From the UHGV virus genome UHGV-0073881: 64,000 nucleotides of DNA. One strand, written 5' to 3'. Below, piece after piece: positions 21,031 through 50,871 of the stretch. The position numbers and the translations under genes are program-made. Each line of letters opens with the position of its first letter. The stretch's first letter is position 1. Under the pieces are notes generated by a model. It was not told where the DNA came from. It saw only the letters and a list, made by a program, of their open reading frames with translations, and did no database searches. The DNA is from a virus.

Positions 21031-21031
21031 A

Positions 21032-24460: not shown

Positions 24461-24901
24461 TTAGAAGGGTTTTCTACGTTGCTTGTTAATATTAGCTTTC
24501 ATAGCAGCTAAGTGGTTTTGCTGTTCAATCAGTCGTGAACGTTCTTGATGGCTAAGTGTCATAGTGTTCACATTCTCAATTGCTTGAGTGGCTTGTTTTA
24601 AAGCACGACCAATCTTACCAGACATTTTACGTTTTGCAATAGTTGCTTGATGTTTTGGCTCAACTACTCGATAACCGACACCCATTGAAGCAACCAGATA
24701 AATCTTCTCTTCTTTAAGAAGCTTCTCAATAAACTTCTCAAGTCGATTTAGGCGTGTAAGTGCGTAAGCCTTCATTTCATCTTCGTACTTAACAATGTCA
24801 CCTTGATAAGTTGGCTTCACAATACCTAAGAAGGTGTCCATCTCAGAATGTGATACGGTGTCACCGTAACTAAACTTTGCTGCTAATGCTTTTGTATTCA
24901 T
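24461..24901 (-). CDS. hypothetical protein (cassette gene 2)
   Basis: 146 aa with basic C-terminus; flanked by the repeat regions. Confidence 0.5.
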   Translation of the reverse strand: MNTKALAAKFSYGDTVSHSEMDTFLGIVKPTYQGDIVKYEDEMKAYALTRLNRLEKFIEKLLKEEKIYLVASMGVGYRVVEPKHQATIAKRKMSGKIGRALKQATQAIENVNTMTLSHQERSRLIEQQNHLAAMKANINKQRRKPF

Positions 24902-24903
24902 AA

Positions 24904-25509
<606 letters not shown>

Positions 25510-25900: not shown

Positions 25901-27004
25901 TTATTCATAGTCTCGAATAACTAACCCAACAGGGAACTGTAAAGACCCCTTGCGAGTCATCTTCTGGAACTGAACCGTTAAAGGTTTCCCGATAAACTCT
26001 TCAGGGTGTTCAGCAAGATACTGTTTCTTCTCATGGGTAGTTTTCCATGAAACATCTACAAAGACATTTGGAAGTGTCTCTACAACAAACTTACCATGAC
26101 CCCGCTTATCGGTCTTCACACCAGTAATTTTAAACTCCTCTGTGTGCATCTTCTTATGTTTAATCAGGAAGTATGAACGGTGACCACACTCATAGAAGGA
26201 CTCTGGAGAGATTGAGCGGTACATTGCACCTTCAAACTTAGCTTCAACCCACTTATCATGAGCTTCATCAAACTCTTCCCAAGAATTTACACGACGAGAT
26301 TTAACAGGGACAACTCTACAGCCATCTCTAAAGTCATTCAATGGTGAAGTCTCAATAATACTTCTACGCTCAGGCCATGTCTTAGTGCTGTCACAGATAT
26401 CATACCAGTAAAACTTGAGTAAATGTCGGTCAGGATTGTCTTCATTTTTAATCATGGAGACAATATCTTCTAAGTCCAACCCATGAGCATAGATTTCACC
26501 ATCAAATTCATCAACGTCTTTATGGAGCCTCAACATTGCCATAATGTCAGGTATTAGCTCAGTAGGAATTTTATAAATAGTGTTCTCACGAGAATATGCT
26601 GTAAATACACTGCCAATACTTAAGTGTCTTGAAATCCTACAACGTACACCATCCAGTTTTGGTTGAGCATCAGCAGGAAATTTCAGATACTTTGCATGAC
26701 TAACCTTTGCAGCATCATGAGCAAGCTGTACACCTACCTTCTCAGTATTCTGTGCAGACTCTTTTGTGTAAGCGTAACCTTTACGGTCTACTTGTTTCTT
26801 GTACTTAGCAGAAACTTCAAAGAGAGCTTGCTGTTCAGCATTACGCTCATTCTTTTTACCGATGTTCTTAGGCTCTGCTGTGTACTCTTCAAACATCATC
26901 TTGCCATTTTCTTTACCGTAGGTTGTAACCACCTTATCACCTACAGCAACACACGACCAAACGTTAAAAGAGCCATCTTTATTTTGTTTGTACAGAATTG
27001 TCAT
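25901..27004 (-). CDS. ATP-dependent DNA ligase
   Basis: 367 aa with adenylation motif KxDGxR (PKLDGVRC) and a ligase-like downstream region. Confidence 0.85.
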   Translation of the reverse strand: MTILYKQNKDGSFNVWSCVAVGDKVVTTYGKENGKMMFEEYTAEPKNIGKKNERNAEQQALFEVSAKYKKQVDRKGYAYTKESAQNTEKVGVQLAHDAAKVSHAKYLKFPADAQPKLDGVRCRISRHLSIGSVFTAYSRENTIYKIPTELIPDIMAMLRLHKDVDEFDGEIYAHGLDLEDIVSMIKNEDNPDRHLLKFYWYDICDSTKTWPERRSIIETSPLNDFRDGCRVVPVKSRRVNSWEEFDEAHDKWVEAKFEGAMYRSISPESFYECGHRSYFLIKHKKMHTEEFKITGVKTDKRGHGKFVVETLPNVFVDVSWKTTHEKKQYLAEHPEEFIGKPLTVQFQKMTRKGSLQFPVGLVIRDYE

Positions 27005-27207
27005 TTTCTCTTACCACCAATCTCTACGTCGATAACTTGAGTGTCTCCACAAACATCAAACTTGTGAATGACATTTTCTACAGTGTAAGTCCAACCATCA
27101 ATCCTTACCCACTCACCTTCTCGTGGTACGATAGGGTTACGTTGGGCAACTGTAGTAGTTGAGTGTATAACGTCATATAGGTGAATAAAGTTTACCAGTA
27201 CTTGCAT
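27001..27207 (-). CDS. hypothetical protein
   Basis: track ORF 27001..27258 overlaps the upstream lipoprotein gene by 50 nt; internal Met at 27207 starts right after that stop codon. Confidence 0.4.
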   Translation of the reverse strand: MQVLVNFIHLYDVIHSTTTVAQRNPIVPREGEWVRIDGWTYTVENVIHKFDVCGDTQVIDVEIGGKRK

Positions 27208-27208
27208 C

Positions 27209-27454
27209 TTAATATCCTTCGTCAATAACGGTGATGTGTTGAGTGCTTGACTTACCATACCTGTAAGAAGTTGTTGTCTGTGAATTTGGGCAACGGACTA
27301 CTATTAAGTCATATTTAAATGTTGACCAATTAAGTTTGTATATTGAACAATCTCTCATCTCTGGAGGTAACTCATAGCTACTGTCTTGTTTGTCATAACT
27401 TGGGTTACAGCCAGTTAGAAAAAGCACTCCAAGTGCAATGATTGTTTTCCACAT
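27209..27454 (-). CDS. small lipoprotein
   Basis: 81 aa; signal peptide plus lipobox-like LTGC (MWKTIIALGVLFLTGC); three further Cys. Confidence 0.55.
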   Translation of the reverse strand: MWKTIIALGVLFLTGCNPSYDKQDSSYELPPEMRDCSIYKLNWSTFKYDLIVVRCPNSQTTTSYRYGKSSTQHITVIDEGY

Positions 27455-27675
27455 AGTTGATTTCCTTTTTCACAGTTTTCTTCGTAACCTTCTTGGACGG
27501 TCTTGTAAAGTTCCTTGAAAGTTTCTTCTTTCACTGGCTCTACAGACTTTGTTTTACACAAGTCCAAGTACCATTGATAGTCTAACCCACGACACCATGC
27601 TTCAGACACAAAAGAAATCTGAGGGTTTATGTTTCGGATTATTGCTAAACCAGCTTCTTCTTTACTGCTCATCAA
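27415..27675 (-). CDS. hypothetical protein
   Basis: 86-aa ORF with several cysteines. Confidence 0.4.
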   Translation of the reverse strand: MMSSKEEAGLAIIRNINPQISFVSEAWCRGLDYQWYLDLCKTKSVEPVKEETFKELYKTVQEGYEENCEKGNQLCGKQSLHLECFF

Positions 27676-27801
27676 ACTTAACCTCTCTAAAAGTTCTTAA
27701 GTAATATAGTTTGTAGTAAACTATTTCGCAACTACGAACGTTTGTTTTCAAAAGGTTCCAATCAAAACCTTCACCCATACTTCCCCAGATGCTGTAGAGC
27801 T

Positions 27802-28005
27802 TCACTGTAAAATGCTCCATCCAGTTTTCTGCCAATCACACCCACGATACCATGTAGCCATTGGGTAACCCATTTCACAGACAATCTTCCCATCTTTCAT
27901 TTCGAAGAACTCATCAGATGTGAAATTTTCATTACGTACTTTGTGACCACTCTTCATGGCTTCAATAGCTTCTTCATAAGTCATTTTGATTTCTCCAATA
28001 CTCAA
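27802..28005 (-). CDS. hypothetical small phage protein
   Basis: 67-aa ORF; pattern EAIEAMKSGHKVR resembles a small protein family common in phages (from memory, unverified). Confidence 0.4.
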   Translation of the reverse strand: MSIGEIKMTYEEAIEAMKSGHKVRNENFTSDEFFEMKDGKIVCEMGYPMATWYRGCDWQKTGWSILQ

Positions 28006-28214
28006 AAGTTAATGTCAATGCGTTCACCCTTAAGGACTCCAGTGTGGTCTTTTGCAATCTTACCATCAACAATAAGGATATGTGCAAACCTTAAAGAGTC
28101 ACGATTAAAACCTTTTACGAACTTACTAGGCATCACTACAATAAGCATCTCCTGAATCAACTCTGGAGTATAGCAATTGTCGTGAAGTTGTTGGATAACG
28201 TCTGAAAGTGTCAT
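28002..28214 (-). CDS. hypothetical protein
   Basis: 70-aa ORF coupled to upstream ORF. Confidence 0.4.
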   Translation of the reverse strand: MTLSDVIQQLHDNCYTPELIQEMLIVVMPSKFVKGFNRDSLRFAHILIVDGKIAKDHTGVLKGERIDINF

Positions 28215-28265
28215 AAATCCTCCTATACAAGATATAGTATAAGGTACTCTTCCATGAGCACCTTG

Positions 28266-28778
28266 TCAACTTAGTTTTGCAAACTCTCCGTGGAGTTTCA
28301 TAGCAGCTTCACAGTAAGCTTCATGGGCTTCTTCAGGGGTGTCATACATCCCAAGATGATAATTCTTACCTTGTAAACGAATCATTGCCCTAAACCTTTT
28401 CCCTATCTTCTGTACACCTTTTGGTAAACCTGATATGGACTTTCTAGACCGATTGCAAGAGTTTTGTGAAGCCGTACAAACCCTCAAATTCAAATACCTA
28501 TTATCCCAACCATCACAATTCTTGTGGTCAACCTGTAAGGTTTTATCAGGTAGGTATCCATCCATATACAAGATAACTAAACGATTTGCTTGGTAACTCC
28601 TTCCATCAATCAGCAATTGGACAGACTTGTGACCATCAGTGTTTGTTCTGTAGTTTCCAGCCCTCTTACCTCCAAATCTAGAGTTAAAGTTTGCATTACC
28701 TTCTCTAAATTTCCAAGTAAAGACCCCTGTATCGGGGTCGTACTCTAAAAGCTCCTTTAAACGAATTTCTGTAATCAT
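28266..28778 (-). CDS. HNH homing endonuclease with AP2-like DNA-binding domain
   Basis: HNH motif (VDHKNCDGWDNRYLNLRVCTASQN) plus AP2-like C-terminus (GVQKIGKRFRAMIRLQGKNYHLGMYDTPEEAHEAY); paralogue of the ORF at 38356; start chosen at internal Met aligning with that paralogue (track start 28817 overlaps the polymerase). Confidence 0.65.
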   Translation of the reverse strand: MITEIRLKELLEYDPDTGVFTWKFREGNANFNSRFGGKRAGNYRTNTDGHKSVQLLIDGRSYQANRLVILYMDGYLPDKTLQVDHKNCDGWDNRYLNLRVCTASQNSCNRSRKSISGLPKGVQKIGKRFRAMIRLQGKNYHLGMYDTPEEAHEAYCEAAMKLHGEFAKLS

Positions 28779-28788
28779 TTCAACACCA

Positions 28789-31494
28789 TCAATGTACTTC
28801 CAACCAGCTCTTACCAACCTTACCAGTACCTGTAACCATAGTTTCTTTTCTTAGACCAAGGTTTTTAGAAGCCTGCCCGTACATCCAGTCAGTGATAGCT
28901 TTAACCTCTTGAGTCATACTTTCTGGACATTCCCAACTATTTTCATCGTGATATGCCAGAAGAAGTCTAGCTCCAATAGCTGGCTTACGTCCATTCAGCT
29001 TCATCAACCCTTCATCATAGGCTCTACGACATGCAAGGTTAATTGCTTCATTCTGTACTTGACTTTCTGAACCCATCAAAAGGTAATTTAACAGCTTGTG
29101 TGGAGACTTACACCATAACCAAGCTCCAGCAACCTTTACAAAACCCCCTTTAGAGATTGCAGCAGTCTTACCAAAGACCTCTTCAAGAGCCTTCTTAGTC
29201 GCTTTAAAGTCAGCTTCTAAGTTATCAATCAGTTTCTTAATCTTCGGCAAACGAACGAAGTAAGTCTGTTTAGTCAATGCACCCTCCTGAGTAGTTGCTG
29301 CTTTAATGGTCTTAGCAAACTTCTCATCCCCTGCACCAAACAGCAGTGCATAGATGCCATTCTTAGCTTTCTTACGACCTTTACTGATTTCGTGAAGAAG
29401 ATTTTCATCCTGAGTCATACGACAAGTCAAGATATCCTGCTCATCATTCAAGCTGAAGTAGATACTGTTCAGTGTGTGAGCATCAGTGCCTGAGTAAACT
29501 ACGTACAAGTCGTTTTCAGAGTCATAACGCAGATACTTGTCAACCTCTGGATTCAGGTATTCGTCAAAGTGTTTGCAGTAGTAGCGACCATCTTCTTGAC
29601 GAACAAATTCAATCTCTTCTTTACCTTCGGTTACCGCTTTGGTGAACTCTTTATCACCCATAAAGTTACACAGTAAAACAAGCTGTGCAGAGTTCATATC
29701 CACAGAGACTACGTTGGTTCCCTTCTCACAAATCCAAACTGCCCTCATTGGTTCACCATAAACAGCAGCACCGGAAGGTACGTTTACAATACCATACTGT
29801 GTCATACGTCCAGTGGATGTACCAAACACCATTGCACCAGCACTTAAACGACCATCTGGACGAATCTGATTCAACCAACCTTTCTCATCATCCTTTGAGT
29901 TCTCAATAGTTCTGCGTCGGTGCATCAAAGTATAGTACTTCGCAATCTTCTGCCCAAGTTCACCTTCGATAGTGTCATAAGAAGATTCAGTCAGTTTTGG
30001 TGAAGTACGAATCAAGCAAGGTTCAAGAACATCTGTGTATTTCTTCACAGACCAATTATGCTCGATGTACTGTACCCCTTCATGCTCAACGTAGTTTAAA
30101 CCACAACGTTCAACCATTTCATCCCACTTAGGATGTTTACGAATCATCTTCTTATTATCTTTGAAGCGACAAACCTTAACAGGACGACCATCTGAGTCTT
30201 TCTTGTAGTTCCAATCATCAGGAATCCAACCAACAGATTTCAGATACTCTTTAACTACTGCAACCTGAGTCATGCGTGAAACTTCAAACTCAATCGGTGT
30301 ATATGGTGCATCAATCAAACCCGTGTAACGACTTGACTCAAGTTCAAAGTGATTAACAACATGATTGTTGTAGTACTTGACAATCTTAACAGTTTTAACT
30401 GGCTTCCAATCTTTGCACTTCTTGTCAACCTTCGCATTTAGCTCATTACATACTGCACGAGCATCTTTCATTGCCACGAAACCTTCTTTGTACTCTTCTC
30501 CGGTTACCGTGTTAGTTGGTGTGTAGCAGTTACGTTTCTCTACGCTGAAAATCTTGGTAGTTGGTTTACCAAATGGCTTAATAGGATAACTTTGCATTTC
30601 CCCATTACGAACCTGCTGACGATACTTTGTCTTAGGATACTTGGTAATACGTTTCAAACCATCTGCTTCACCAAAAGTTTCAACATACTCATTCCAAGCT
30701 TTTGCAAATTCTTCACCAGTAACTTTCCCTTTTGTCTTGATAGTTGGTGGTAAGAATGGCTCAACCTCTGAAGCAAGGTCAGCAGTCATCTTATCAAGTT
30801 CTTTAACACAACTCTTCATCATGTTAATGTCAGCTTTCCAACCATTGATAGCTTGCTGGCTCATCCAGAAAGATGTTTCTTTAGCTCGCATGTAGGTTTC
30901 GTAGGTATCCACACCACACTTCTTCAGCTTCACATACTCATTATCAAGAGCACGTTTAGTTTTGGCGTTGATTCGAATATCTTCAACAACACGAGTTAAG
31001 ATTTCAGCGTTCCAAACTCCCCACTCTTCAATCTCAGGCTTACGGACACCAACACGAGCACCCCATGCAGCCAAACCATGAGAACCCTTGTAACCTTTCG
31101 GTGTAGGTCTATCCATCCACTGAACACGAGATTGGATAAGTGAATCTTGGAAGAAATTACTCCAAGGCTTACATTTAGGGTTATCAAAGTTCCACAGGTC
31201 AGGTGCAATGTGGTTGAACACCCACCAGTCATAACCAAGACCGTTGTGAATGCAAAGACGTTTCGCCTTTAAAGCAAACTCAACACCCTCTCTTAAGCCA
31301 CCCTTGATATACTTGGTGTACTTGTGACCAAGAATAGGCTCATCAGTGAATACCCACACAGGTGGTTCATCACTGTCATCTTTGTAATCTGCAAAAGCCA
31401 TTACGTGAGCTTTAGTGAACTCAAGCAGCAATCCGTCAGTTTCTGTATCGCCTACCAGATGCAAATTTTTAAAGTCTACGTTTTCCATTTTCAC
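28789..31494 (-). CDS. DNA polymerase, family A, with 3'-5' exonuclease domain
   Basis: 901 aa; Exo I-like DTETDGL; motif B-like KNGIYALLFGAG; motif C HDE (LAYHDENSWE). Confidence 0.9.
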   Translation of the reverse strand: MKMENVDFKNLHLVGDTETDGLLLEFTKAHVMAFADYKDDSDEPPVWVFTDEPILGHKYTKYIKGGLREGVEFALKAKRLCIHNGLGYDWWVFNHIAPDLWNFDNPKCKPWSNFFQDSLIQSRVQWMDRPTPKGYKGSHGLAAWGARVGVRKPEIEEWGVWNAEILTRVVEDIRINAKTKRALDNEYVKLKKCGVDTYETYMRAKETSFWMSQQAINGWKADINMMKSCVKELDKMTADLASEVEPFLPPTIKTKGKVTGEEFAKAWNEYVETFGEADGLKRITKYPKTKYRQQVRNGEMQSYPIKPFGKPTTKIFSVEKRNCYTPTNTVTGEEYKEGFVAMKDARAVCNELNAKVDKKCKDWKPVKTVKIVKYYNNHVVNHFELESSRYTGLIDAPYTPIEFEVSRMTQVAVVKEYLKSVGWIPDDWNYKKDSDGRPVKVCRFKDNKKMIRKHPKWDEMVERCGLNYVEHEGVQYIEHNWSVKKYTDVLEPCLIRTSPKLTESSYDTIEGELGQKIAKYYTLMHRRRTIENSKDDEKGWLNQIRPDGRLSAGAMVFGTSTGRMTQYGIVNVPSGAAVYGEPMRAVWICEKGTNVVSVDMNSAQLVLLCNFMGDKEFTKAVTEGKEEIEFVRQEDGRYYCKHFDEYLNPEVDKYLRYDSENDLYVVYSGTDAHTLNSIYFSLNDEQDILTCRMTQDENLLHEISKGRKKAKNGIYALLFGAGDEKFAKTIKAATTQEGALTKQTYFVRLPKIKKLIDNLEADFKATKKALEEVFGKTAAISKGGFVKVAGAWLWCKSPHKLLNYLLMGSESQVQNEAINLACRRAYDEGLMKLNGRKPAIGARLLLAYHDENSWECPESMTQEVKAITDWMYGQASKNLGLRKETMVTGTGKVGKSWLEVH

Positions 31495-31744
31495 TCCCTC
31501 TCAAACATATGACTCCATACCTTACTGCAAAACGACACAAAAAGCAAGTTGACAAATAACTTGACAGGGTGTTAGTCTTGTATGCAGTGGGTTTTAACTT
31601 AAAAGACTCCCTTTACAGATTAACTATACAGATTCTTTAAAACCCTTAAAAGATTTTAATAGCTTTTAAAAAGCTTTAAAGTATTACGTATAGAATACGT
31701 AAAGAAAGAGATTAAGACTTAATAGAAACTATAAAGAGGCTGCC
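31495..31744. promoter_or_regulatory. divergent intergenic control region
   Basis: 250-bp AT-rich gap between the - strand polymerase gene and + strand genes; tandem TTGACA hexamers at 31549 and 31561; perfect inverted repeat TACGTAT-aga-ATACGTA at 31686-31702. Confidence 0.4.
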
Positions 31745-32167
31745 ATGCAGAGAATGTTTGTTCACCCTGACGTAGCAAATTTCCTAAAAGCTTTGGAGAA
31801 GTTAGAAGAACTTGACATAGCTGCTCAGAAGGAATATGCTTACCATCATCGTCGAATGGTTGATGTTCAACACGAAATAGAACTTTCAGAAGGTTACGAC
31901 GAAGATTTGAAATGCTCTGTTTTCGAGCATATGAAAGAGATTGCTTCTGATAGGCGTAAAGCAAAAGATACATGTTTTTTGATAGATGCCTTAAAAAAGA
32001 AGTTGCAAAGTGGAACAGACTTGTGTAGTCTAGCAACACTTCTTCAGGATGTTGAGAGTTCTTGGGACAGACATTACTTCCCAAGGTCTGAAAAGACACT
32101 TGACTTCTCTTCACCGGAAGGATTAAAATTATCACGACTTACATTAAACAAAATGAGAGAGAAATAA
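31745..32167 (+). CDS. hypothetical protein
   Basis: 140-aa ORF; + strand chosen over the overlapping antisense ORF 31719..32135 because it is co-oriented and coupled with downstream genes. Confidence 0.45.
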   Translation: MQRMFVHPDVANFLKALEKLEELDIAAQKEYAYHHRRMVDVQHEIELSEGYDEDLKCSVFEHMKEIASDRRKAKDTCFLIDALKKKLQSGTDLCSLATLLQDVESSWDRHYFPRSEKTLDFSSPEGLKLSRLTLNKMREK

Positions 32168-32168
32168 T

Positions 32169-32969
32169 ATGAAAACTGTAAATGAAATGCTGGCAGAAAA
32201 GAACATCAACGAACAATTCCTGTTAACTACTGTGGAAAGCCTTGCTGTAATTTTCCGTAGCAATACGTTCACTCGTGGCTTTATGCCAGAATCACTTCAA
32301 GTTACAGATATTGACAGTGACGAATCTTTCCGCTCAACTGTAGAGTTACTTACCAGCAATCGTAAAATTGCTCTGACCTCTATCGTTGTTGGTGTTGACT
32401 CTCTGGCTAAATTCCTGTTTGAGAACATGCAGAGTGGTGATTACTCTAGCATGGATGAGCAAAGCATTAATATGCTGCTTAATGAGATGACTGAACAGCA
32501 AATGGTCATGGGTATTGTTGGTGGAGTATCAAGTGTCATGGCTATGCTGGAAAAGCGTATGGAAGATAAATCTTCACGCTATGACAAACTTGATTGGGGT
32601 TTCAATGTAATCTCTGAACGTGCTAAAGCGCTGGCTATTGAAACTTACCAGAAACTGGAAGACTTGACTAAACAGGACGCAGATATTAAGCTTGACGACA
32701 TTCAGGTTATGGTTACTGCTCTGACACCTGCAATCATGACTATCATGAATATTCACGCAATTCTTGAAGTTGCAGATTTGCTGAAGTCTCCACCTTCTTT
32801 CATTGAAGAAATCAGTGGTGGTGCAAGTGCATCTGCTTTGCAAGATGTTCTTATGCAGACCAACGTAGCAATTGTACGTGAGAAGATTGCCATTAACTTT
32901 GGCGATGAATTTTTGCAGCAGATTGAAGCAATGGCTGAAAAGAACGGTGAAGATATTACAATTCACTAA
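32169..32969 (+). CDS. hypothetical protein
   Basis: 266-aa ORF followed by a terminator. Confidence 0.5.
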   Translation: MKTVNEMLAEKNINEQFLLTTVESLAVIFRSNTFTRGFMPESLQVTDIDSDESFRSTVELLTSNRKIALTSIVVGVDSLAKFLFENMQSGDYSSMDEQSINMLLNEMTEQQMVMGIVGGVSSVMAMLEKRMEDKSSRYDKLDWGFNVISERAKALAIETYQKLEDLTKQDADIKLDDIQVMVTALTPAIMTIMNIHAILEVADLLKSPPSFIEEISGGASASALQDVLMQTNVAIVREKIAINFGDEFLQQIEAMAEKNGEDITIH

Positions 32970-32985
32970 TTGTTAATACCCAAAT

Positions 32986-33010
32986 AGCCTCCTTAATTGG
33001 GGGCTTTTTA
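32986..33010 (+). terminator. rho-independent terminator
   Basis: AGCCTCC-ttaatt-GGGGGCT stem-loop (one G-U pair) followed by TTTTT. Confidence 0.55.
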
Positions 33011-33027
33011 TTATGGAGAGGTTGAGT

Positions 33028-33768
33028 ATGAAAAGTATTATTGCATTCACTGGTAAGGCTCGTTCTGGAAAAGACACTTCCTGTACTCTGGTAAGAAATG
33101 CCTTGACTGAGAAAGGTTACAAAGTTAAAGTTTTTGCGTTTGCAGATAACCTTAAAAACACTGCTGGAGATATCTTCAACCTGACTTGGGAAGATTTGTA
33201 TGGAGACACAAAAGAAACTCCACAGGTCTTCACACTGACTCATTCAGCATTATCTTCACAGGTTATTTGGGCTTTTTACAGACACATGCAAGATAAGGAT
33301 ATCCACAAGGATTTAAAGCTGTGTGGTGAATTAACCGACAAACTAATCAAAGAATTGAAAAAGGTTGGTAAACCGACATTACTCACCAGACTCGGCTTGC
33401 GTAATGAATATAAAATCTCTTCACGTCAAATCCAACAAGTTTGGGGAAGTGAAGTTGTCCGTAAAATCTTGGGTGAAAGGTTCTGGATTATTGACTTAGC
33501 AGAACGCATGGAGAAGTTCTTTGGTGAATGCCATACAGAAGACCATGAAGGTATTGCACTAATCTGTGATTTAAGATTTGACATTGAGGCTGAGTTTCTT
33601 CAAAGTTATGACAGTAAAATCATTGAGGTGAAGAGGGACAATACTACACAAGTTGCTTCACATCATTCTGAGAAAGGTATTTCAACCTTGTTTGAGCGTG
33701 ACATTATTCAAAACAATGGCACAATGGATGAGCTTGAAAGTAAACTAAAAGCTATCATTGGAATTTAA
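33028..33768 (+). CDS. putative deoxynucleoside monophosphate kinase
   Basis: P-loop AFTGKARSGKDT near the N-terminus; start set at ATG 33028 (GGAGAGG 6 nt upstream) rather than track start 33013, which lies in the terminator T-run. Confidence 0.5.
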   Translation: MKSIIAFTGKARSGKDTSCTLVRNALTEKGYKVKVFAFADNLKNTAGDIFNLTWEDLYGDTKETPQVFTLTHSALSSQVIWAFYRHMQDKDIHKDLKLCGELTDKLIKELKKVGKPTLLTRLGLRNEYKISSRQIQQVWGSEVVRKILGERFWIIDLAERMEKFFGECHTEDHEGIALICDLRFDIEAEFLQSYDSKIIEVKRDNTTQVASHHSEKGISTLFERDIIQNNGTMDELESKLKAIIGI

Positions 33769-33976
33769 AAAGAGAGATATTAAGATGAGAGTAGATAATT
33801 TAAAAGTAATTGACCACCGTTCTGTAGAACTCTCATCTCTTTCTAAGGAAGTAATGATGGAGCGACTTGAAAGGGTCACTTCACGAAGGAAAGAGATTGC
33901 TGAAGAAATTCATGAACTAGACAAGATTGAAAATGGTTTAAAAGCTGAACTGCAACGTAGAGGTGCTAATGTCTAA
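33758..33976 (+). CDS. hypothetical protein
   Basis: 72-aa coiled-coil-like ORF. Confidence 0.4.
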   Translation: MEFKKRDIKMRVDNLKVIDHRSVELSSLSKEVMMERLERVTSRRKEIAEEIHELDKIENGLKAELQRRGANV

Positions 33977-35954
33977 AGGTCGTAAATTGAAAGAGGCTGG
34001 TCAGTTTGTTGGTCACTGTGCATGTCCTAAGTGTGGTTCATCAGATGCAGGGTCTATCTATCATCATGACGATGATTCTTATTCGATGACTTGCTTTAGC
34101 TGTAACAAAGGGTTTCCAGAGTGGGATTTTGATAAGGGTCAGATTGTGAGCACATATTCTACAGGTTCTGATAATAATAGCCGTACTTTCCGTGGTATGG
34201 ATTTAGATGAAGTAAAAGAGAACCTTGAAGCAATGGATTTAAAAGACAGGAAGATTCCTGCAAAGGTTCTTGAACGTCTTGGTATTAAGGTTGACATTGA
34301 TGAAAACGGTGATATTGACGCTCACTTTTACCCAACTTATAAGAAAGATGAAAATGGGAAGCTGAAGCATGTTGGTTATCGTGTTCGCCACAAATACCCT
34401 GAAGACCATCCTAAAGAGCATCTTCGTGGCAAGTTAAAAGACTTCTCAGGTGGTGTAGGAGATATTAAAGGTGAACTGGCTATGTTCGGTTCATGGATTG
34501 CTCCAGAAGGTGGTAACCGTCTTTTCATTTGGGAAGGAGAGATGGAATGTGCTACAGCAATCTATATGACTTCTTTGGCAATCAAAGATAAGTCACGTAG
34601 AAAGAATTACTGTCACGTTTCTGTACCATCTGGTGCAAACATTAAGTCTATCAAAGAAAACTATCAGTACATTACATCGTTTGATGAGATTTACCTGTGC
34701 TTTGATAATGACGAAGCTGGAGCCAAAGTAACTAAAGAAGCTGCTGGTATTCTGCCTATTGAGAAGGTTCGTTTATTCCAGTACCCAGAAGGTGTTAAAG
34801 ACCTTAGCGAGTGGTGGACTAAATTCTTCAAAGACAAAGATACAGTCCTTGAAGGGTTTAAGCAGAGAATTTACAATGCACCTCGTTACTGCCCTGCTGG
34901 TATCAAGAACTTCGCAGATGGTTTTGAGGCTATGAAGAATCGTGGTCAGATTCCACTGATTCCCTTCCCAGATTCCTTCGGAGACCTTAACAGGTTGACT
35001 TATGGAGGTTATGGCTTAGGGGAAATTACAACTCTGGCTGCACCATCTTCAGTTGGTAAATCTGCATACACTCGTGAAATGATTTACACAGCTTGGAAAG
35101 AAACTGACTACAATATCGGTGTAATTCCTGTGGAAGACACCTATGAAGAGTTAATGGAAATGCTCTGTGCAATTCACCTGAGTAAGCAGATTTCAGAAAT
35201 TAATTATGATGAACGGGATTGGGATGAAATCAAAGTTGCACATGCTGAGTTGTCTGCTGGTCGTCGTATCCATATCGTTGACCACCAAGGGGCAATTGAC
35301 CAAGACAACCTTCTAGAGTTTGTTGACTATCTGGTTAACAGTCTAGGTTGCAAGATTATTATTCTTGACCCTATTACGTTGGCACTGTCACGTTCTGATA
35401 CAGATGAAGAAGAAGTTCTGTCTGAGTTACTTCGTCGTTGTAAGCGTTATCAATACGCTCAAGTAAACGTCTGTCACGTTCGTAAGAGTGCAGGTGGTCA
35501 GAAAGCTAACTCTGAAGGTGGAGATATCTCTGAAGAGGATATCAAGGGTTCTGGTGCATACTTCCAGATTTCTATGAACAACATTCTGTTAATGCGTAAC
35601 AAGGTTGACCCAGACCCTGTTAAGAAAAACTTGACTAAAATCAAGTTAACAAAATGTCGTCGTCATGGTAAGTCAACTGGTATTGCTGGTCACACTTGGT
35701 ATAACCCAGATACAGGTCGTCTTATCAAGGCTGCTGGTAGTGGTGTTGATATTGACGGTGCAGCAGAGAATATCCGTCAGCAATTTGGTATCGGTGAACC
35801 GGAAGACCACTATGATGATTCTATGCCACACTATGAAGATGGAGACTTTGACAAAGATACTGGTGAAATCTACACTGAAGAACAACGTCAAAGTTCTACC
35901 ATTCCACCTGTGATTAATGAGGATGATGATGACTGCCCGTTTGAAACTGAATGA
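33963..35954 (+). CDS. DNA primase/helicase (T7 gp4-like)
   Basis: N-terminal zinc ribbon (CPKCGS ... CFSCNKGF); TOPRIM-like acidic motifs (EGEMECA, FDNDEAG); DnaB-type Walker A (APSSVGKSAYT). Confidence 0.85.
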   Translation: MLMSKGRKLKEAGQFVGHCACPKCGSSDAGSIYHHDDDSYSMTCFSCNKGFPEWDFDKGQIVSTYSTGSDNNSRTFRGMDLDEVKENLEAMDLKDRKIPAKVLERLGIKVDIDENGDIDAHFYPTYKKDENGKLKHVGYRVRHKYPEDHPKEHLRGKLKDFSGGVGDIKGELAMFGSWIAPEGGNRLFIWEGEMECATAIYMTSLAIKDKSRRKNYCHVSVPSGANIKSIKENYQYITSFDEIYLCFDNDEAGAKVTKEAAGILPIEKVRLFQYPEGVKDLSEWWTKFFKDKDTVLEGFKQRIYNAPRYCPAGIKNFADGFEAMKNRGQIPLIPFPDSFGDLNRLTYGGYGLGEITTLAAPSSVGKSAYTREMIYTAWKETDYNIGVIPVEDTYEELMEMLCAIHLSKQISEINYDERDWDEIKVAHAELSAGRRIHIVDHQGAIDQDNLLEFVDYLVNSLGCKIIILDPITLALSRSDTDEEEVLSELLRRCKRYQYAQVNVCHVRKSAGGQKANSEGGDISEEDIKGSGAYFQISMNNILLMRNKVDPDPVKKNLTKIKLTKCRRHGKSTGIAGHTWYNPDTGRLIKAAGSGVDIDGAAENIRQQFGIGEPEDHYDDSMPHYEDGDFDKDTGEIYTEEQRQSSTIPPVINEDDDDCPFETE

Positions 35955-36207
35955 GTGTTATCTGAAGGAGGGTTTCACGCCCTTCTATTCAGAAGAGACT
36001 ACTAAAAAATTCGCAAAAGAGTGCTTGACTAAGATTGAACAGTTCGCTAAAGTACTCATCAACAAGGGGCACGATGTTACTTTTGAACATGAAAGCCGTA
36101 AAGATAAAGACTTGTTTGCACTGTCAATTGACAAAGCTGATACAATTTATCTTTTCACCTTGACTTTAAAAACATTTGAATATGAAATATATCGGAGCAC
36201 AAAATGA
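35917..36207 (+). CDS. hypothetical protein
   Basis: 96-aa ORF overlapping the primase-helicase 3' end. Confidence 0.45.
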   Translation: MRMMMTARLKLNECYLKEGFTPFYSEETTKKFAKECLTKIEQFAKVLINKGHDVTFEHESRKDKDLFALSIDKADTIYLFTLTLKTFEYEIYRSTK

Positions 36208-36341
36208 AACACTCTAAAGCATTTGAAGCAGTATTTGGCGATTCCATGAAAGCAACTGCTGGTAAGTCTGCTGCACATTATGAAGCGAAGCGTGTACGTA
36301 CTGGCAAGACTGCTCGCAAAGCTGCTAAGAAAGCTGCTTAA
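36204..36341 (+). CDS. small basic Lys/Ala-rich protein
   Basis: 45 codons, below the ORF-track cutoff; ATGA start/stop overlap with upstream ORF; CGGAG 6 nt upstream; K/A-rich C-terminus. Confidence 0.4.
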   Translation: MKHSKAFEAVFGDSMKATAGKSAAHYEAKRVRTGKTARKAAKKAA

Positions 36342-36347
36342 AAAGAT

Positions 36348-36376
36348 TTGACAAAGGAGTATGAAGTCTGTAACAT
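36348..36376 (+). promoter_or_regulatory. sigma70-like promoter candidate (TTGACA-N17-TAACAT)
   Basis: hexamers upstream of the SSB-like gene; spacer contains a short hairpin. Confidence 0.35.
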
Positions 36377-36428
36377 TGTACTCCTTCGAGTTTGAGTTAA
36401 AAGTTTAATTGAGTAAAGAGGTATTAAA

Positions 36429-37271
36429 ATGTCTAAAGTTGTTAAAATGAAATCTCCGGTAGAAAAGTACAACGGTCAAGAGCGCGAGACAATGCGTTAT
36501 CTGCTGAAAGATGTTTGGTTCTACTACCTGAACACTATTCCACGCCCGGGAAAAGGTAAGTCAGTAGATAAGAAATTCCCAGGCAAAGATTGCAACTACA
36601 GCGTTTCAATTCTTGCAAAGGATGGTAACAAGCTGTTTAAAGAGTTTACCAAGACCAAGAAGAGTCCTGAAGGTTGGGATAAGGTCACCACTGAAGTTGT
36701 TGATGCAGATGACTTTGAAGAAAAATTTGGTTGTGAGCCTCCATTTGAAGCTGACACCTATCACATCTTGAAAGTTAGTCGTGCTGCTGCTTACAAAGAT
36801 GGTGCTGTGTGGACAGCTAAACAGTCTTTCCCTGTAAGTCTGATTGAAGAAATTAACGGGAAGCGTGTTGCAGTTAAGCAGCCTATGAAGAAAATCAAAG
36901 CGCTTAAATCTGATAAGCACGAAGATGATAAGAACTATGACGTAGTTCACCCAGACATTGCAGTTGGTAACGGTTCTTTTGGTAGTGTTATCTTGGCAAC
37001 TCACTTCTACACATTTGAAGGTGCTGTGTTGACGAAACCAATTCAAGAGCAGTTTATCATTGATACTCTGGTTCCGTACACTGGTGGTACAGGTAGCAAC
37101 TCTGATACTGAACTGGATGAAGACGAACTGGCAATGCTTGGTCTGGATGGTGTTGAAGATAATGGTACTATCACTGAAGAAGAACCTACAGAAAATGATG
37201 GTGACGACGACGATGATGACCTTCCAACTCCAGACGACGATGACGACGATGACTTTGATACTGAAGAATAA
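36429..37271 (+). CDS. putative single-stranded DNA-binding protein with acidic C-terminal tail
   Basis: 280 aa; sits between primase-helicase and 5'-3' exonuclease; C-terminus DDDDDDLPTPDDDDDDDFDTEE recalls the acidic, Phe-containing tails of T7 gp2.5-type SSBs. Confidence 0.45.
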   Translation: MSKVVKMKSPVEKYNGQERETMRYLLKDVWFYYLNTIPRPGKGKSVDKKFPGKDCNYSVSILAKDGNKLFKEFTKTKKSPEGWDKVTTEVVDADDFEEKFGCEPPFEADTYHILKVSRAAAYKDGAVWTAKQSFPVSLIEEINGKRVAVKQPMKKIKALKSDKHEDDKNYDVVHPDIAVGNGSFGSVILATHFYTFEGAVLTKPIQEQFIIDTLVPYTGGTGSNSDTELDEDELAMLGLDGVEDNGTITEEEPTENDGDDDDDDLPTPDDDDDDDFDTEE

Positions 37272-37288
37272 TCGTTAAAACTAATACT

Positions 37289-37317
37289 AAGCCCTGTACT
37301 ATGTATGGGGCTTTTTC
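37289..37317 (+). terminator. rho-independent terminator
   Basis: AAGCCC ... GGGGCT stem followed by TTTTT. Confidence 0.5.
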
Positions 37318-37331
37318 GTATGGAGATTAAA

Positions 37332-38378
37332 ATGGAAAAGTATACACTTACAAAACTCCCAGATACTGTGACACACGTCTTTATTGACTCTGATAGCATT
37401 GCCTATAAAGGTGCTTGTGTAGTTGAGAAAGCAAAGTACAAGTATGTGAACAAAATCACTGCTGAAGAGTCTGAAGGGTTTGACAGTGCAAAGCTTGCTA
37501 ATCAATGGTTGTCAGACCAGAGAACTTTGACAGAAGAACTTGGCCTCAGCTTTGATGAAGATGAATGGGAAAGACAAACTTGGAAAGAAGCTAAGAGTGA
37601 AAAAGAAGCTATTATGGCAACTCAACAAGTTCTTCAAGAATGGTTGAAGGTTGTCGGAAAAGAAAGACATTGGGAAGGTTACCTCACAGAGAAAGGTGTT
37701 CACAAACACAAAGACATTAAAGGTCTTGAACATCAATACCAAGGTAACAGGAAAGATGCTGTAACACCAACGCACCTAGTTGCTTGTCGTGAGTATCTTC
37801 TGTCACGACCAGAGTTTAAGCTTTTAAAGGGAGGCTTTGAAGCTGACTCTATTGTAATTGCCAAAGCTGAGAAGATGGGTAAAAAAGCTGCATTGATGAG
37901 TATTGATAAAGACCTTCGTCAAGCTGAAGGCACATACTGCATCGATATGACTTATGAGAAAGCCCCATTAATCTTTATCGCTGATGGTAATGTGGGAGAG
38001 ATTTGGGATTGTCCTATCAAATCTAAACCAAAAGCTAAGAAGACGGTTGGAGTAGGCTTCAAATTCCTCTGCTATCAAGCTGTAGCAGGTGATAATGCCG
38101 ATAACTACTTTGGCCTTAAGGGTGCTGGTAAAGTTGCTGTAATGAACGCTCTGGAAGGTAAAACAACCTATAAAGAGTGTCTTGATGCAATCTATGAACT
38201 GTATGCTAAGAAAGACTCTTACACATACGTATCGTGGGACGGTGAAACAATTACAAGAACACCTCTTGAGTTGATGGAACAACATTTCTTCTTAGCATAC
38301 CAAGAGCGAAACAAATCAGATGACTTCTCATTTGAAAAGTATGGTTGGACTCCAAATGTTGACTCAGCAGACACTTAA
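37332..38378 (+). CDS. 5'-3' exonuclease / flap endonuclease
   Basis: helix-3-turn-helix-like motif AGDNADNYFGLKGAGKVA characteristic of FEN/5'-3' exonucleases; start set at ATG 37332 (GGAG 6 nt upstream) since track start 37305 lies inside the terminator. Confidence 0.7.
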   Translation: MEKYTLTKLPDTVTHVFIDSDSIAYKGACVVEKAKYKYVNKITAEESEGFDSAKLANQWLSDQRTLTEELGLSFDEDEWERQTWKEAKSEKEAIMATQQVLQEWLKVVGKERHWEGYLTEKGVHKHKDIKGLEHQYQGNRKDAVTPTHLVACREYLLSRPEFKLLKGGFEADSIVIAKAEKMGKKAALMSIDKDLRQAEGTYCIDMTYEKAPLIFIADGNVGEIWDCPIKSKPKAKKTVGVGFKFLCYQAVAGDNADNYFGLKGAGKVAVMNALEGKTTYKECLDAIYELYAKKDSYTYVSWDGETITRTPLELMEQHFFLAYQERNKSDDFSFEKYGWTPNVDSADT

Positions 38379-38856
38379 AGAGTATCTTCATTATGACCCC
38401 GAAACAGGGGTCTTTACTTGGTTGAAGAAATCGGCTAATAGGACAGTCATTGGTTCAGTTGCTGGAACACCCCATAAAAGGGGCTATATCAGGATTACCA
38501 TAAAGAGAAAATCATACATGGCTCATGATTTAGCCATTCTTTACACAGAGGGATTCTTACCAGACCGTGTAGACCATCGTAACGGAATTACTAATGACAA
38601 CCGAAGAATGAACTTGAGAGTTTGCACTCAAGCTGAAAATTGTTGGAATAGAAAAATACACTCCAACAATACATCTGGCGTAAAAGGTGTATCATTCAAC
38701 AAAGCTTCACAGAGGTGGAGAGCAAGGATTATGGTTCACGGTGTAACACATTTCCTTGGTCTGTTTGACAATGTTGATGATGCCAAAGAAGCAATTAGAA
38801 AGAAAAGAGAAGAACTTCACAGAGAGTTCACAAATCATGGAGAAGCTTATGAATGA
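38356..38856 (+). CDS. HNH homing endonuclease with AP2-like domain
   Basis: HNH motif (VDHRNGITNDNRRMNLRVCTQAEN) and AP2-like C-terminus; paralogue of the ORF at 28266..28778 (shared YDPETGVFTW); start at internal Met aligning with paralogue, track start is 38320. Confidence 0.65.
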   Translation: MLTQQTLKEYLHYDPETGVFTWLKKSANRTVIGSVAGTPHKRGYIRITIKRKSYMAHDLAILYTEGFLPDRVDHRNGITNDNRRMNLRVCTQAENCWNRKIHSNNTSGVKGVSFNKASQRWRARIMVHGVTHFLGLFDNVDDAKEAIRKKREELHREFTNHGEAYE

Positions 38857-39353
38857 AGATTAAAGGTTTTGGCAATTGCCCTGAATATGGACATTGGATT
38901 TCACTGTGCGGGGAAATTGACCCCGCTAAGTATTTTGGATTTGTTTACTTAGTATACTGTAAAAAGACTGGACAGTATTATTTGGGAAAGAAACAGTTTA
39001 ACAATGTCTCTAAAAAGAAAGTAGCTGGAAAGACCAGACGTAAAGTTGTCACCAAAGAGAGTGACTGGCTGACGTATCAGACTTCTTCGGAGTACATTAA
39101 GAAGGATATTGAAACTTTTGGTAAAAAAGAGTTTGACTTCTACATTGTGCAGCCTTACTATACGCGAGGTGGATTGGTCTACGGAGAAGCCAATTTACAA
39201 CATAAGTTTGACGTCATGACAAAAAGGATTGACTCCAAGCTTCGACTCTTCTACAATGCGAATATTGCAGCTATCAAGTTTCTTACGAAAGAGACTTATG
39301 AAGATGCAGAGAAGAGAATCCATAAAATCATGAAACTTAATGAGAGAGAATAA
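38853..39353 (+). CDS. putative GIY-YIG homing endonuclease
   Basis: N-terminal FVYLVYCKKTGQYYLGKK resembles GIY-(10-11 aa)-YIG; basic C-terminal region. Confidence 0.45.
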   Translation: MKIKGFGNCPEYGHWISLCGEIDPAKYFGFVYLVYCKKTGQYYLGKKQFNNVSKKKVAGKTRRKVVTKESDWLTYQTSSEYIKKDIETFGKKEFDFYIVQPYYTRGGLVYGEANLQHKFDVMTKRIDSKLRLFYNANIAAIKFLTKETYEDAEKRIHKIMKLNERE

Positions 39354-40957: not shown

Positions 40958-40983
40958 AGGGGTCTCTTCGGAGACCCTTTTTC
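40958..40983 (+). terminator. rho-independent terminator
   Basis: GGGGTCTC-TTCG-GAGACCC followed by TTTTT. Confidence 0.65.
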
Positions 40984-45064: not shown

Positions 45065-45087
45065 GGGTCTCTTCGGAGACCTTTTTT
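45065..45087 (+). terminator. rho-independent terminator
   Basis: GGGTCTC-TTCG-GAGACC followed by TTTTTT; near-identical to the terminator at 40958. Confidence 0.65.
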
Positions 45088-47256: not shown

Positions 47257-47267
47257 GTAGTTGACAA

Positions 47268-47306
47268 GGTAGTGTAGGTCTTGATAGGCTTGCACTACCT
47301 TTTTTA
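47268..47306 (+). terminator. stem-loop terminator candidate
   Basis: GGTAGTG ... CACTACC (7-bp stem, long loop) followed by TTTTTT. Confidence 0.45.
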
Positions 47307-47411
47307 TTGGATGTTAGATATGACAGAGAACATCATTGGTTTATTCATAGGTTCTACCTTACTAGGGTTCTTTCTAGGACTCCTTTATTGTGACTTAAGA
47401 GGAAAGTTAAA

Positions 47412-50861: not shown

Positions 50862-50871
50862 AAACTTTAAA

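Follow-up and report, generated by a model that had tools for sequence, protein, structure and literature searches.

The window, a 64,000-nt stretch of the virus genome UHGV-0073881, comes from an Ounavirinae (FelixO1-like) phage, and two of its genes, HEG1 and HEG2, are probably (roughly 80%, judged from sequence patterns) active or very recently active free-standing HNH_3+AP2 homing endonuclease genes. They are an ordinary, previously annotated kind of element, that is, selfish mobile genes that related phages gain and lose. The four ORFs listed in the original prediction, HEG1, HEG2 and those at 38853-39353 and 49183-49698, are all present as it described; its homing-gene reading is supported for HEG1 and HEG2 and not supported for the other two, which it grouped with them. 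Biocontrol and typing of Salmonella and E. coli make wide use of FelixO1-like phages, and the HNH genes routinely annotated in them are here confirmed as mobile by sequence-level evidence of recent transfer. HEG1 and HEG2 mark recombination breakpoints within the replication module; the 3′ ends of the polymerase and exonuclease genes, like the GIY-YIG gene at its 5′ end, are unsuitable for phylogeny or typing, and for engineering the two slots offer natural sites at which insertions are tolerated.

HNH-AP2 genes at the ends of replication genes

28215-28269, minus strand: invariant spacer (TTGACAAGGTGCTCATGGAAGAGTACC...), found in filled and empty alleles alike
28266-28778, minus strand: HEG1, putative free-standing HNH_3+AP2 homing endonuclease gene, 170 aa; HNH_3, AP2, phrog_99
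28789-31494, minus strand: family-A DNA polymerase gene, host of the first slot, 901 aa; Pfam DNA_pol_A, phrog_17
37305-38378, plus strand: 5′-3′ exonuclease gene, host of the second slot; phrog_107 exonuclease, E=1e-63, and no Pfam match
38356-38856, plus strand: HEG2, putative free-standing HNH_3+AP2 homing endonuclease gene, 166 aa; HNH_3, AP2, phrog_99
38853-39353, plus strand: GIY-YIG nuclease-fold protein gene, 166 aa; Pfam SegE_GIY-YIG, E=1.7e-26

HEG1 and HEG2 are paralogues (40% identity, E=1e-34), which, together with their domains, bears out the prediction of two paralogous HNH-AP2 ORFs, one following the polymerase gene and one overlapping the end of the exonuclease gene; a third copy was not found in the window. 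The YDPETGVFTW segment that they were said to share is exact in HEG2 and reads YDPDTGVFTW in HEG1. Both proteins match Pfam HNH_3 above the 24.8 cut-off (HEG1, E=2.6e-11, 43.4 bits; HEG2, E=1e-7, 31.9 bits) and Pfam AP2 below the 33.3-bit gathering cut-off (E=5.5e-6, 27.0 bits, and E=5.3e-4, 20.7 bits, respectively), and their relatives carry an AP2/ERF annotation by InterPro. Both also match the phrog_99 HNH endonuclease (E=2e-59 for HEG1 and 1e-71 for HEG2). The catalytic D-H...N...N residues (an Asp-His general base pair, a structural Asn, and a metal-binding Asn) are intact, the pattern VDH(R/K)N...DN...NLR...(Q/E)N..N being conserved in 17/17 slot copies, and the HNH motif aligns with VDHKDG..NLR..KIN of I-HmuI.

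HEG1 and HEG2 belong to the I-HmuI-related group of His-Me finger nucleases (HNH_3 + AP2 class). The solved relative, I-HmuI (PDB 1U3E), aligns residue-for-residue over the HNH_3 motif but is only weakly similar overall (E=0.046); moreover, it is intron-encoded and carries NUMOD/HTH modules without AP2, whereas HEG1 and HEG2 are free-standing and have a probable AP2 domain. Proteins that combine HNH with AP2 form an established class of homing endonucleases, and near polymerase genes the boundaries of exchange are marked by homing genes (PMC10448857; PMC5714182). In their domain order (N-terminal YDPxTG, HNH_3 with D-H...N...N, probable C-terminal AP2) and in adjoining replication genes, HEG1 and HEG2 agree with the known HNH genes to which they can be likened (FelixO1 ORF95, ORF106 and ORF128, wV8 gp113, and T5-like 'hegJ/P-Tfl'), a group that resembles the IPA-HNH genes of ICP1. 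FelixO1 has six HNH copies (PMC3185647), and the orthologous slots are already annotated as HNH endonuclease in FelixO1, wV8, Moogle, KPS64, and others; however, the copies in the window represent separate lineages, which share only 40-56% identity with the genes that occupy these slots in the FelixO1 type strain. A literature search returned no Ounavirinae HNH-AP2 protein for which cleavage, a target site, or biased inheritance has been measured.

Both genes are separate ORFs in frames that differ from those of their neighbours and lie in neither an intron nor an intein. The HEG1 ATG follows the polymerase stop codon by 10 nt, and the insertion point is exact, between that stop codon and the conserved TTGACA spacer. 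The spacer and the final ~70 nt of the HEG ORF form a block that is 94-100% identical across four HEG lineages; the RNA structure of the conserved 130-nt block 3′ of HEG1 was not significant (z=-1.7), and a sigma-70 scan did not call the TTGACA spacer a promoter. HEG2 lies between the exonuclease 3′ end and the GIY-YIG start codon, overlapping the former gene by 23 nt and the latter by 4 nt. Junction alignment demonstrates that the exonuclease tail in the window (..KYGWTP-NVDSADT, then stop) comes from the insert, empty alleles ending in ..KYGWEP-VMNED and stop. Each element is an essentially bare ~500-nt ORF, fitted so that neighbouring genes remain intact: HEG1 borrows its stop, the TGA lying inside the TTGACA of the resident spacer, while HEG2 supplies the exonuclease with a new 7-residue tail and, for the GIY-YIG gene, rebuilds both the ribosome-binding site and the surroundings of the ATG.

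Intergenic insertion between conserved genes, presence/absence polymorphism, flanking-marker co-conversion, and mosaic block boundaries at the gene liken HEG1 and HEG2 to the T4-like seg/mob genes (SegG, MobE; see PMC2988022 and PMC2790892) and to the 'nuclease genes at boundaries of genetic exchange' of ICP1 (PMC10448857). Unlike Seg (GIY-YIG) and Mob (HNH without AP2), HEG1 and HEG2 combine HNH_3 with a probable AP2 domain; also unlike them, they are bare ORFs that borrow a resident stop and rebuild neighbours' ends, and several lineages share their ORF termini.

Distribution and transfer among relatives

The polymorphism that was to be sought at the polymerase and exonuclease 3′ regions of relatives was found for both genes, and all four slot combinations occur. 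Both slots are filled in the window and, with other lineages in one or both, in FelixO1, Henu11, and adrianh; wV8 has only the exonuclease slot filled, Michonne and SUSP1 only the polymerase slot, and pEC-M719 neither. The exonuclease slot is filled in 22/58 (~38%) and empty in 36/58 of an evenly spaced sample of relatives' records, and the polymerase slot is filled in roughly 65% of a spread sample of relatives. At an identity of at least 60%, the HEG1 lineage occurs in only 27 phage records and the HEG2 lineage in only 29. HEG1 is missing from pEC-M719, wV8, and S.Kent, and HEG2 from pEC-M719, SUSP1, Michonne, and mistaenkt. HEG1 copies are 92-98% identical in KPS64, adrianh, and Mushroom (92-94% in the last), and HEG2 copies are 99% identical in S.Kent 1-2-1 and Moogle and 83-84% identical in wV8; the HNH gene of Moogle, annotated as truncated, has an intact ORF. 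The distribution is not phylogenetic, since the closest relative, pEC-M719-6WT.1 (polymerase 97.9% identical at the amino acid level, within a range of 88-98% among relatives), lacks both genes, while adrianh (Felixounavirus) and KPS64 (Mooglevirus) share HEG1 at 92-98%.

HEG copies that are 97-99% identical reside in genomes otherwise ~84% identical, which requires recent transfer. They lie in sharp-edged tracts of 0.7-1.0 kb with 1.3-1.5% divergence, set within 10-40% divergence, and the end points vary by partner.

28232-29040, no strand assigned: tract shared with KPS64, 12 mismatches/809 nt; flanks ~10% and >30% divergent
38061-39082, no strand assigned: tract shared with S.Kent 1-2-1, 14 mismatches/1022 nt; ~12-20% divergence outside

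The first tract takes in HEG1 and the final ~250 nt of the polymerase gene and, like the second, is read as a co-conversion tract; identity to pEC-M719 falls to 76-82% over 28700-29100 and is 96-100% deeper in the polymerase gene. No HEG-linked haplotype was seen in the last 60 nt of that gene. The second runs from the final ~290 nt of the exonuclease gene through HEG2 into the GIY-YIG gene, of which it covers the first ~230 nt, and the tract shared with Moogle is shorter (38202-38883); its ends differ, and the recombination events are therefore independent.

By analogy with known homing systems, co-infection with an empty-slot relative would allow the endonuclease to nick or cut the relative's DNA at the junction or close to it, the predicted regions being the polymerase stop/spacer junction for HEG1 and the exonuclease end/GIY-YIG start for HEG2. 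Recombinational repair would then copy the gene from the HEG-bearing genome, together with a few hundred flanking bases of the polymerase, exonuclease, or GIY-YIG gene. A genome that already carries the gene is probably immune, since its junction is interrupted by the insert.

Ordinary homologous recombination that transfers an accessory gene would produce the same sequence patterns. Both genes are under purifying selection, with dN/dS (0.10-0.12 for HEG1 and 0.06 for HEG2) like that of the polymerase (0.07) and exonuclease (0.06) genes, and selection of this strength could equally mean that the proteins serve the phage. The HNH-AP2 ORFs might be accessory, 'moron'-like genes whose movement is not started by their own nuclease, the nuclease and DNA-binding functions acting in, e.g., competitor exclusion, regulation, or DNA processing. 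Besides dN/dS values as low as those of core genes, such a reading can draw on the conserved regulatory-looking sequence in the slots and on the mosaicism of the whole replication region, which extends to sites without endonuclease genes, such as the block boundary near 35.5-36 kb. It is nonetheless improbable: at both loci the near-identical tracts are short and have the endonuclease gene exactly at their centre, the same two junctions have been hit repeatedly by different lineages of one nuclease family, and that family is a recognised homing class. Block boundaries of the mosaic coincide with the HEG1 slot. A single 'HEG island' spanning HEG1 to HEG2 was considered and rejected, as no one relative shares the entire 28.8-38.3 kb block.

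It is very unlikely that the two genes are relics, once mobile, which some lineages have since fixed and others deleted; the polymorphism would then reflect loss and not gain. In favour of this reading, the empty alleles are precise, and the intermediate insert-size classes of some relatives (+200 and +420 nt) could be decay products; against this stand the recent transfer that the 97-99% identical copies require, the intact ORFs and catalytic motifs maintained by purifying selection, and the empty polymerase site of the nearest relative, pEC-M719, which holds no insert remnant.

The least credible alternative assigns HEG1 to 'collaborative homing' with the ORF-less group I intron found in the polymerase gene of some relatives, the partnership that F-CphI has with the psbA intron of cyanophages; HEG1 would cut the intron site 555 nt upstream of the polymerase stop codon. 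The geometry is like that of psbA/F-CphI (see PMC6083498), and Mushroom has both an ORF-less polymerase intron (RF00028, 62 bits) and, just downstream, its 92-94% identical HEG1. However, the polymerase gene of the window is intron-less (the group I intron of relatives lies between codons 716|717, window 29347|29346), and an Rfam scan of the whole window gave 0 matches, hence no Rfam intron. KPS64 and adrianh likewise combine the same HEG1 lineage with an intron-less polymerase gene and, like the window, would cut themselves. The tract shared with KPS64 stops at 29040 and does not reach the intron site (29346/29347), and in S.Kent, which lacks HEG1, the intron contains an EndoVII-type ORF of its own. 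With the intron in only 1/4 genomes of the HEG1 lineage (lineage A), the proposal was rejected.

Slot lineages and the rare-codon palindrome

Both slots also hold other HNH-AP2 lineages, whose cores are unrelated at the DNA level and whose ORF ends are near-identical, a pattern that suggests core swapping. Under the homing reading, the slots are repeatedly re-occupied by other HNH-AP2 lineages, apparently because the central part of the ORF is exchanged while its conserved ends stay in place. An invariant, GC-rich GACCCC-N6-GGGGTC palindrome occurs ~40 nt into the ORF in all lineages of the two slots.

28722-28739, minus strand: palindrome GACCCC-N6-GGGGTC (+TTTACTT) of HEG1, encoding D-P..G-V of the YDPxTGVFTW segment
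38395-38412, plus strand: palindrome GACCCC-GAAACA-GGGGTC (+TTTACTT) of HEG2, an inverted repeat

At the DNA level HEG1 and HEG2 resemble each other only over one 45-nt stretch containing this palindrome, the codons of which are rare in this genome (CCC 2%, GTC 7%, and GGG 11% of their codon families). A role as a family-wide RNA or DNA structure was rejected: across 59 distinct IMG/VR HNH-AP2 loci the palindrome codons vary synonymously, leaving 2-5 in-register pairs and a perfect stem only in Ounavirinae copies, and this free variation means that the palindrome is not a family feature. Given the peptide, the hairpin is not significant alone (synonymous-codon resampling with G-U allowed, P=0.03-0.23 per lineage); the unusual part is the exact use of rare codons. 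No G4/C4 tracts that might serve as AP2 targets occur within 500 nt of the empty polymerase slot of pEC-M719. It is possible, though doubtful, that the junctions are fixed 'sockets' exchanging HNH-AP2 cores and that the palindrome is a cis element and not a by-product of the YDPxTGV peptide; it could then act as a transcription attenuator for the upstream replication gene, as an operator for a GC-preferring AP2, or as a core-swap crossover point. Together, the near-identical ORF ends and the palindrome with its rare codons offer a concrete, testable handle on how one homing gene displaces a competitor from the site they share and on how homing-gene expression is restrained.

Two fixed core genes

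49183-49698, plus strand: conserved core ORF, possible degenerate HNH motif; phrog_3500 (function unknown)

The HNH-like ORF predicted at 49183-49698 exists, but its HNH resemblance is weak. It reads GHHKPVTKGGEHHCSNW..DNQKQG, a GHH..GG..N..DN pattern, and matches phrog_2214 with E=1.4e-4 and the IscB HNH region with E=0.013; no Pfam match was obtained, and its structure model (pLDDT 71) matched no nuclease. All relatives have it once, at 80-94% identity (429 records, one place each). Being universal and not polymorphic, it is a fixed core gene and not a currently mobile homing gene, nor is it demonstrably an HNH nuclease.

The GIY-YIG-like ORF said to follow HEG2 is confirmed by its SegE_GIY-YIG profile match. 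The Pfam model covers residues 22-138, and all that lies outside it is a terminal helix; no DNA-binding or other domain was found besides the catalytic domain, and a PDB sequence search gave no match. One copy lies at the same position in 10/10 relatives examined, its divergence tracks that of host genes, and it occurs in ~297 phage records at an identity of at least 60%; matches fall at 788 places in 785 records. With no presence/absence polymorphism, the homing-gene reading is not supported for this ORF, which essentially all Ounavirinae have as a fixed core gene in one copy and which is not a currently mobile homing gene. In its universality, single position, and lack of a detected DNA-binding domain, it is unlike the I-TevI/SegE-type GIY-YIG homing endonucleases. 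A hairpin in this gene (38908-38926) was rejected as an immunity determinant against HEG2, as it is identical in Moogle, which carries HEG2, and pEC-M719, which does not; it is absent from FelixO1, adrianh, and Henu11. In databases, the ORF is often misnamed 'NAD synthetase'.

Genes at the polymerase and exonuclease slots

HEG1 and HEG2, two free-standing genes that combine HNH_3 and AP2 domains, are probably genuine homing endonuclease genes that have moved recently; judging from sequence comparison, we put this at roughly 80%. They lie in a region for which approx. 260-280 Ounavirinae (FelixO1-like) phage records show 80-90% DNA identity; Escherichia phage pEC-M719-6WT.1 (OQ845957.1) matches best, at 89% identity across 27000-51000. 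The order of genes starts with ligase, small ORFs, and the DNA polymerase gene on the minus strand; dNMP kinase, primase/helicase, exonuclease, MazG-like, nrdA, nrdB, nrdD, nrdG, prs, and nadV genes follow on the plus strand, and FelixO1, wV8, Moogle, and SUSP1 share this order. The original prediction read four ORFs as homing endonucleases, and all four are present:

28266-28778, minus strand: HEG1; HNH_3 above the Pfam threshold; phrog_99 'HNH endonuclease' (E=2e-59)
38356-38856, plus strand: HEG2; HNH_3 above the Pfam threshold; phrog_99 'HNH endonuclease' (E=1e-71)
38853-39353: GIY-YIG gene; SegE_GIY-YIG match (E=1.7e-26)
49183-49698: ORF of phrog_3500 (function unknown)

HEG1 and HEG2 are indeed paralogues (40% identity, E=1e-34), and the window holds no third HNH-AP2 paralogue. 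Their AP2 matches have significant E-values, yet fall under the Pfam cut-off. The decapeptide YDPETGVFTW, thought to be common to both, occurs as such in HEG2, while HEG1 reads YDPDTGVFTW. The ATG of HEG1 lies 10 nt downstream of the stop of a 901-aa family-A polymerase, the exonuclease ORF (phrog_107) stops 23 nt past the ATG of HEG2, and HEG2 overlaps the GIY-YIG gene by 4 nt.

The other two ORFs resemble nucleases to different degrees, and mobility was not borne out for either. The GIY-YIG gene occurs as one copy at the same position, with 85-96% identity, in every relative examined at the locus. At ≥60% identity it is found in approx. 297 phage records, including those of Erwinia Ounavirinae (approx. 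61%), and more distant homologues occur in T4-like cyanophages; compared with FelixO1 and wV8, pN is low (approx. 0.09) and pS is saturated (approx. 0.75). As it is universal and single-copy and lacks any recognised DNA-binding domain, it counts as a fixed core gene; its fold is that of a nuclease, and it is not a polymorphic homing gene. Its 'NAD synthetase' label, found in phrog_447 and in the RefSeq records of FelixO1, wV8, SUSP1, and cyanophages, is a misnomer, since domain and fold evidence identify a GIY-YIG nuclease. ORF 49183-49698 has no Pfam match, although it weakly matches an HNH PHROG and the HNH region of IscB, and a GHH..GG..N..DN motif is invariant among its homologues. No nuclease fold was found in its medium-confidence structure model. 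It is single-copy in all relatives, as it is in phages of the rV5-like and phi92-like groups, and is a core gene rather than a mobile element, a putative HNH protein at most. Nearby, a 103-aa ORF at 48819-49130 (Pfam DUF7390, E=1.7e-15) is labelled 'putative HNH (homing) endonuclease' in the wV8 and adrianh records and matches no nuclease family.

Slot occupancy and insertion boundaries

The approx. 25-kb homologous region of eight relatives and shorter pieces of five others were compared, with genes placed by tblastn. At the pol slot, which is at the 3' end of the polymerase gene, no insert is present in pEC-M719, wV8, or S.Kent 1-2-1; at the exo slot, between the exonuclease and GIY-YIG genes, pEC-M719, SUSP1, Michonne, and mistaenkt have none. 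Taking both slots together, each of the four possible combinations of filled and empty states exists among relatives. The proposed test for presence/absence polymorphism is positive for two of the four ORFs, HEG1 and HEG2, and negative for the two single-copy genes. For a wider survey, empty-junction queries were searched against all phage records and an evenly spaced sample was read. Of 58 sampled records, 22 had a filled exo slot (the query matched as two pieces separated by approx. 490 nt) and 36 an empty one; roughly two thirds of the sample carried a pol-slot insert of approx. 500 nt, in some with an extra ORF of approx. 210 nt. The window's own lineages are rarer than slot occupancy as such: at ≥60% identity, 27 records contain HEG1 and 29 contain HEG2, with the remaining matches below 60%.

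The insertion boundaries are sharp. In the empty pol slot, TTGGTA comes directly after the polymerase stop and leads into an invariant spacer, TTGACAAGGTGCTCATGGAAGAGTACC..., which occurs once in the window; in the filled slot, the insert lies exactly between the polymerase stop and this spacer, and HEG1 terminates at the TGA within the spacer's TTGACA. The empty exo slot reads ...AAATATGGTTGGGAGCCTGTTATGAATGAAGATTAA, and here the exonuclease end and the GIY-YIG start overlap by 11 nt. In the filled slot, approx. 498 nt lie between TATGGTTGG and TTATGAATGAAG; the exonuclease then ends in NVDSADT-stop instead of the VMNED-stop of the empty allele, and the insert recreates the GGAG-N8-ATG context of the GIY-YIG gene. 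As the junctions are precise at both slots, the elements comprise hardly more than the ORF itself.

Other insertions were seen in relatives. Further pol-slot classes measure approx. +200 nt (a small FelixO1 ORF94-like ORF, no endonuclease) and approx. +420 nt; records showing such classes include JLBYU32, NBEco005, and KhF2; JH2 and ULIM8. Two further endonuclease slots, empty in the window (47257-47411 and 50862-50907), are filled in relatives (20558-21121 and 24735-25226 of fetched sequence L015). A slot after nrdD is filled in SUSP1, and one between prs and nadV holds a third HNH-AP2 lineage in SUSP1, FelixO1 (ORF128), and S.Kent. Within the polymerase gene of Mushroom (KP143762), a 383-bp 'gap', given in the genome announcement only as a region without an obvious homing endonuclease ORF, is a group I intron (Rfam RF00028, 62 bits; fetched sequence L004, 3089-3393, minus strand). 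At the same codon, S.Kent 1-2-1 has approx. 800 nt (L014, 2786-3587) with a 160-aa EndoVII-type HNH ORF. The site corresponds to residues 716|717 of the window polymerase (29346/29347), which is intron-less and so a potential homing target.

Probable exchange of ORF cores and flanking sequence

Each slot hosts several lineages of HNH-AP2 gene. The pol slot has at least four, with proteins 40-54% identical: the window/KPS64/adrianh/Mushroom type, the Henu11/Michonne type, the SUSP1 type, and the FelixO1 type. The exo slot has two (window/S.Kent/Moogle/wV8 versus FelixO1/adrianh/Henu11; 52-54% identical). At the DNA level, the pol-slot cores are effectively unrelated (35-50% identity), and the final approx. 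70 nt of the ORF together with the 50-nt spacer are 94-100% identical across all four lineages; the adjoining polymerase 3' end falls below this block, at only 69-86%. Similarly, the two exo-slot lineages share 81-93% identity at the ORF ends (first approx. 75 nt and last approx. 70 nt) and 33-62% in the core of approx. 370 nt. The simplest reading is that ORF cores would have been replaced through recombination within the conserved ends; overlapping signals of neighbouring genes may contribute by constraining those ends.

Flanking sequence appears to have travelled with the genes. The window and KPS64 (approx. 84% identical overall) differ by 12 mismatches over 28232-29040, a tract that spans the spacer edge, HEG1, and the final approx. 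250 nt of the polymerase gene, outside of which divergence is approx. 10% upstream and more than 30% downstream. Against pEC-M719, identity is 76-82% at the polymerase 3' end and 96-100% deeper in the gene. Directly downstream of HEG1, the window and Henu11 are 95-100% identical, though the Henu11 endonuclease belongs to a different lineage. Around the exo slot, the window differs from S.Kent 1-2-1 by 14 mismatches over 38061-39082 and from Moogle by 9 over 38202-38883, against a background divergence of 12-25%; the end points of these two tracts differ. Such tracts correspond to the footprint that gene conversion centred on HEG1 and HEG2 would be expected to leave. Beyond these footprints, the homing mechanism is one that we infer.

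The wider stretch 27000-36000 is a mosaic, with blocks closest to Henu11 (27000-28250, 97-99% identity), KPS64 (28232-29040, 99%), and pEC-M719 (29500-35500, 95-99%). Beyond approx. 35500, all relatives are only approx. 80-85% identical to the window, and the boundary near 35.5-36 kb adjoins no endonuclease gene in the window.

Catalytic residues, known systems and hairpins

Both genes appear to be under purifying constraint close to that of their neighbours: HEG1 has a dN/dS of 0.10-0.12 (versus adrianh and Mushroom) and HEG2 one of 0.06 (versus wV8), compared with 0.07 for the polymerase and 0.06 for the exonuclease. I-HmuI was the only relative with a solved structure that was found, and its catalytic residues line up with a D-H...N...N motif that is intact in 17 of 17 copies compared; the match is weak (E=0.046). 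I-HmuI is a nickase, as are several HNH homing enzymes from phages. A published classification also underlies this status (PMC5714182), and HNH plus AP2 is a recognised class (PMC5714182; PMC10448857). Six HNH homing endonuclease homologues were reported in FelixO1 in 2010 (PMC3185647), and many GenBank records label the orthologous slots as HNH or GIY-YIG homing endonucleases. Earlier work on ICP1 and other phages placed homing genes beside polymerase genes as well as at boundaries of genetic exchange, and the BASEL study noted, for larger phage genomes in general, gene conversion tied to homing endonuclease infestation. No biochemical or genetic test of Ounavirinae HNH-AP2 genes was found in the literature. 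Only the shared ORF ends and a perfect rare-codon palindrome, GACCCC-N6-GGGGTC followed by TTTACTT, go beyond routine annotation. The palindrome lies approx. 40 nt into each ORF:

28722-28739: palindrome in HEG1
38395-38412: palindrome in HEG2

It encodes the YDPxTGVFTW segment and was flagged in both genes by a simple terminator scan. All six lineages in the pol and exo slots (14 of 14 copies) use exactly the codons GAC CCC ... GGG GTC, and within their codon families CCC, GTC, and GGG account for 2%, 7%, and 11% in the window genome. The FelixO1 pol-slot gene has the same arms with a different loop and flanks, the prs-nadV-slot lineage (absent from the window) keeps a stem with different bases, and the palindrome is not conserved in homologues from phages outside Ounavirinae. 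Once G-U pairs are counted, a stem this long is not unlikely for a sequence encoding this peptide. The palindrome sits within a 45-nt stretch that is the sole DNA similarity between HEG1 and HEG2; across 27-51 kb, no inverted repeat is longer than this stretch. AP2 domains have been reported to prefer GC-rich DNA (PMC10448857); the palindrome could possibly act as an attenuator, an operator, or a crossover point.

The GIY-YIG gene contains, 55 nt into its ORF, a further GC-rich hairpin (GCGGGG-N7-CCCCGC, 38908-38926); this hairpin has a compensatory version in wV8 (GTGGGG/CCCCAC) and is absent from FelixO1, adrianh, and Henu11. Of the 15 strong GC hairpins across the 64-kb window, three fall in the 5' parts of the three nuclease-family ORFs, and most of the remainder resemble intergenic terminators. 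Near-identical terminator hairpins, GGGTCTCTTCGGAGACC plus a T-run, precede nrdA (40960-40982) and nrdD (45065-45087).
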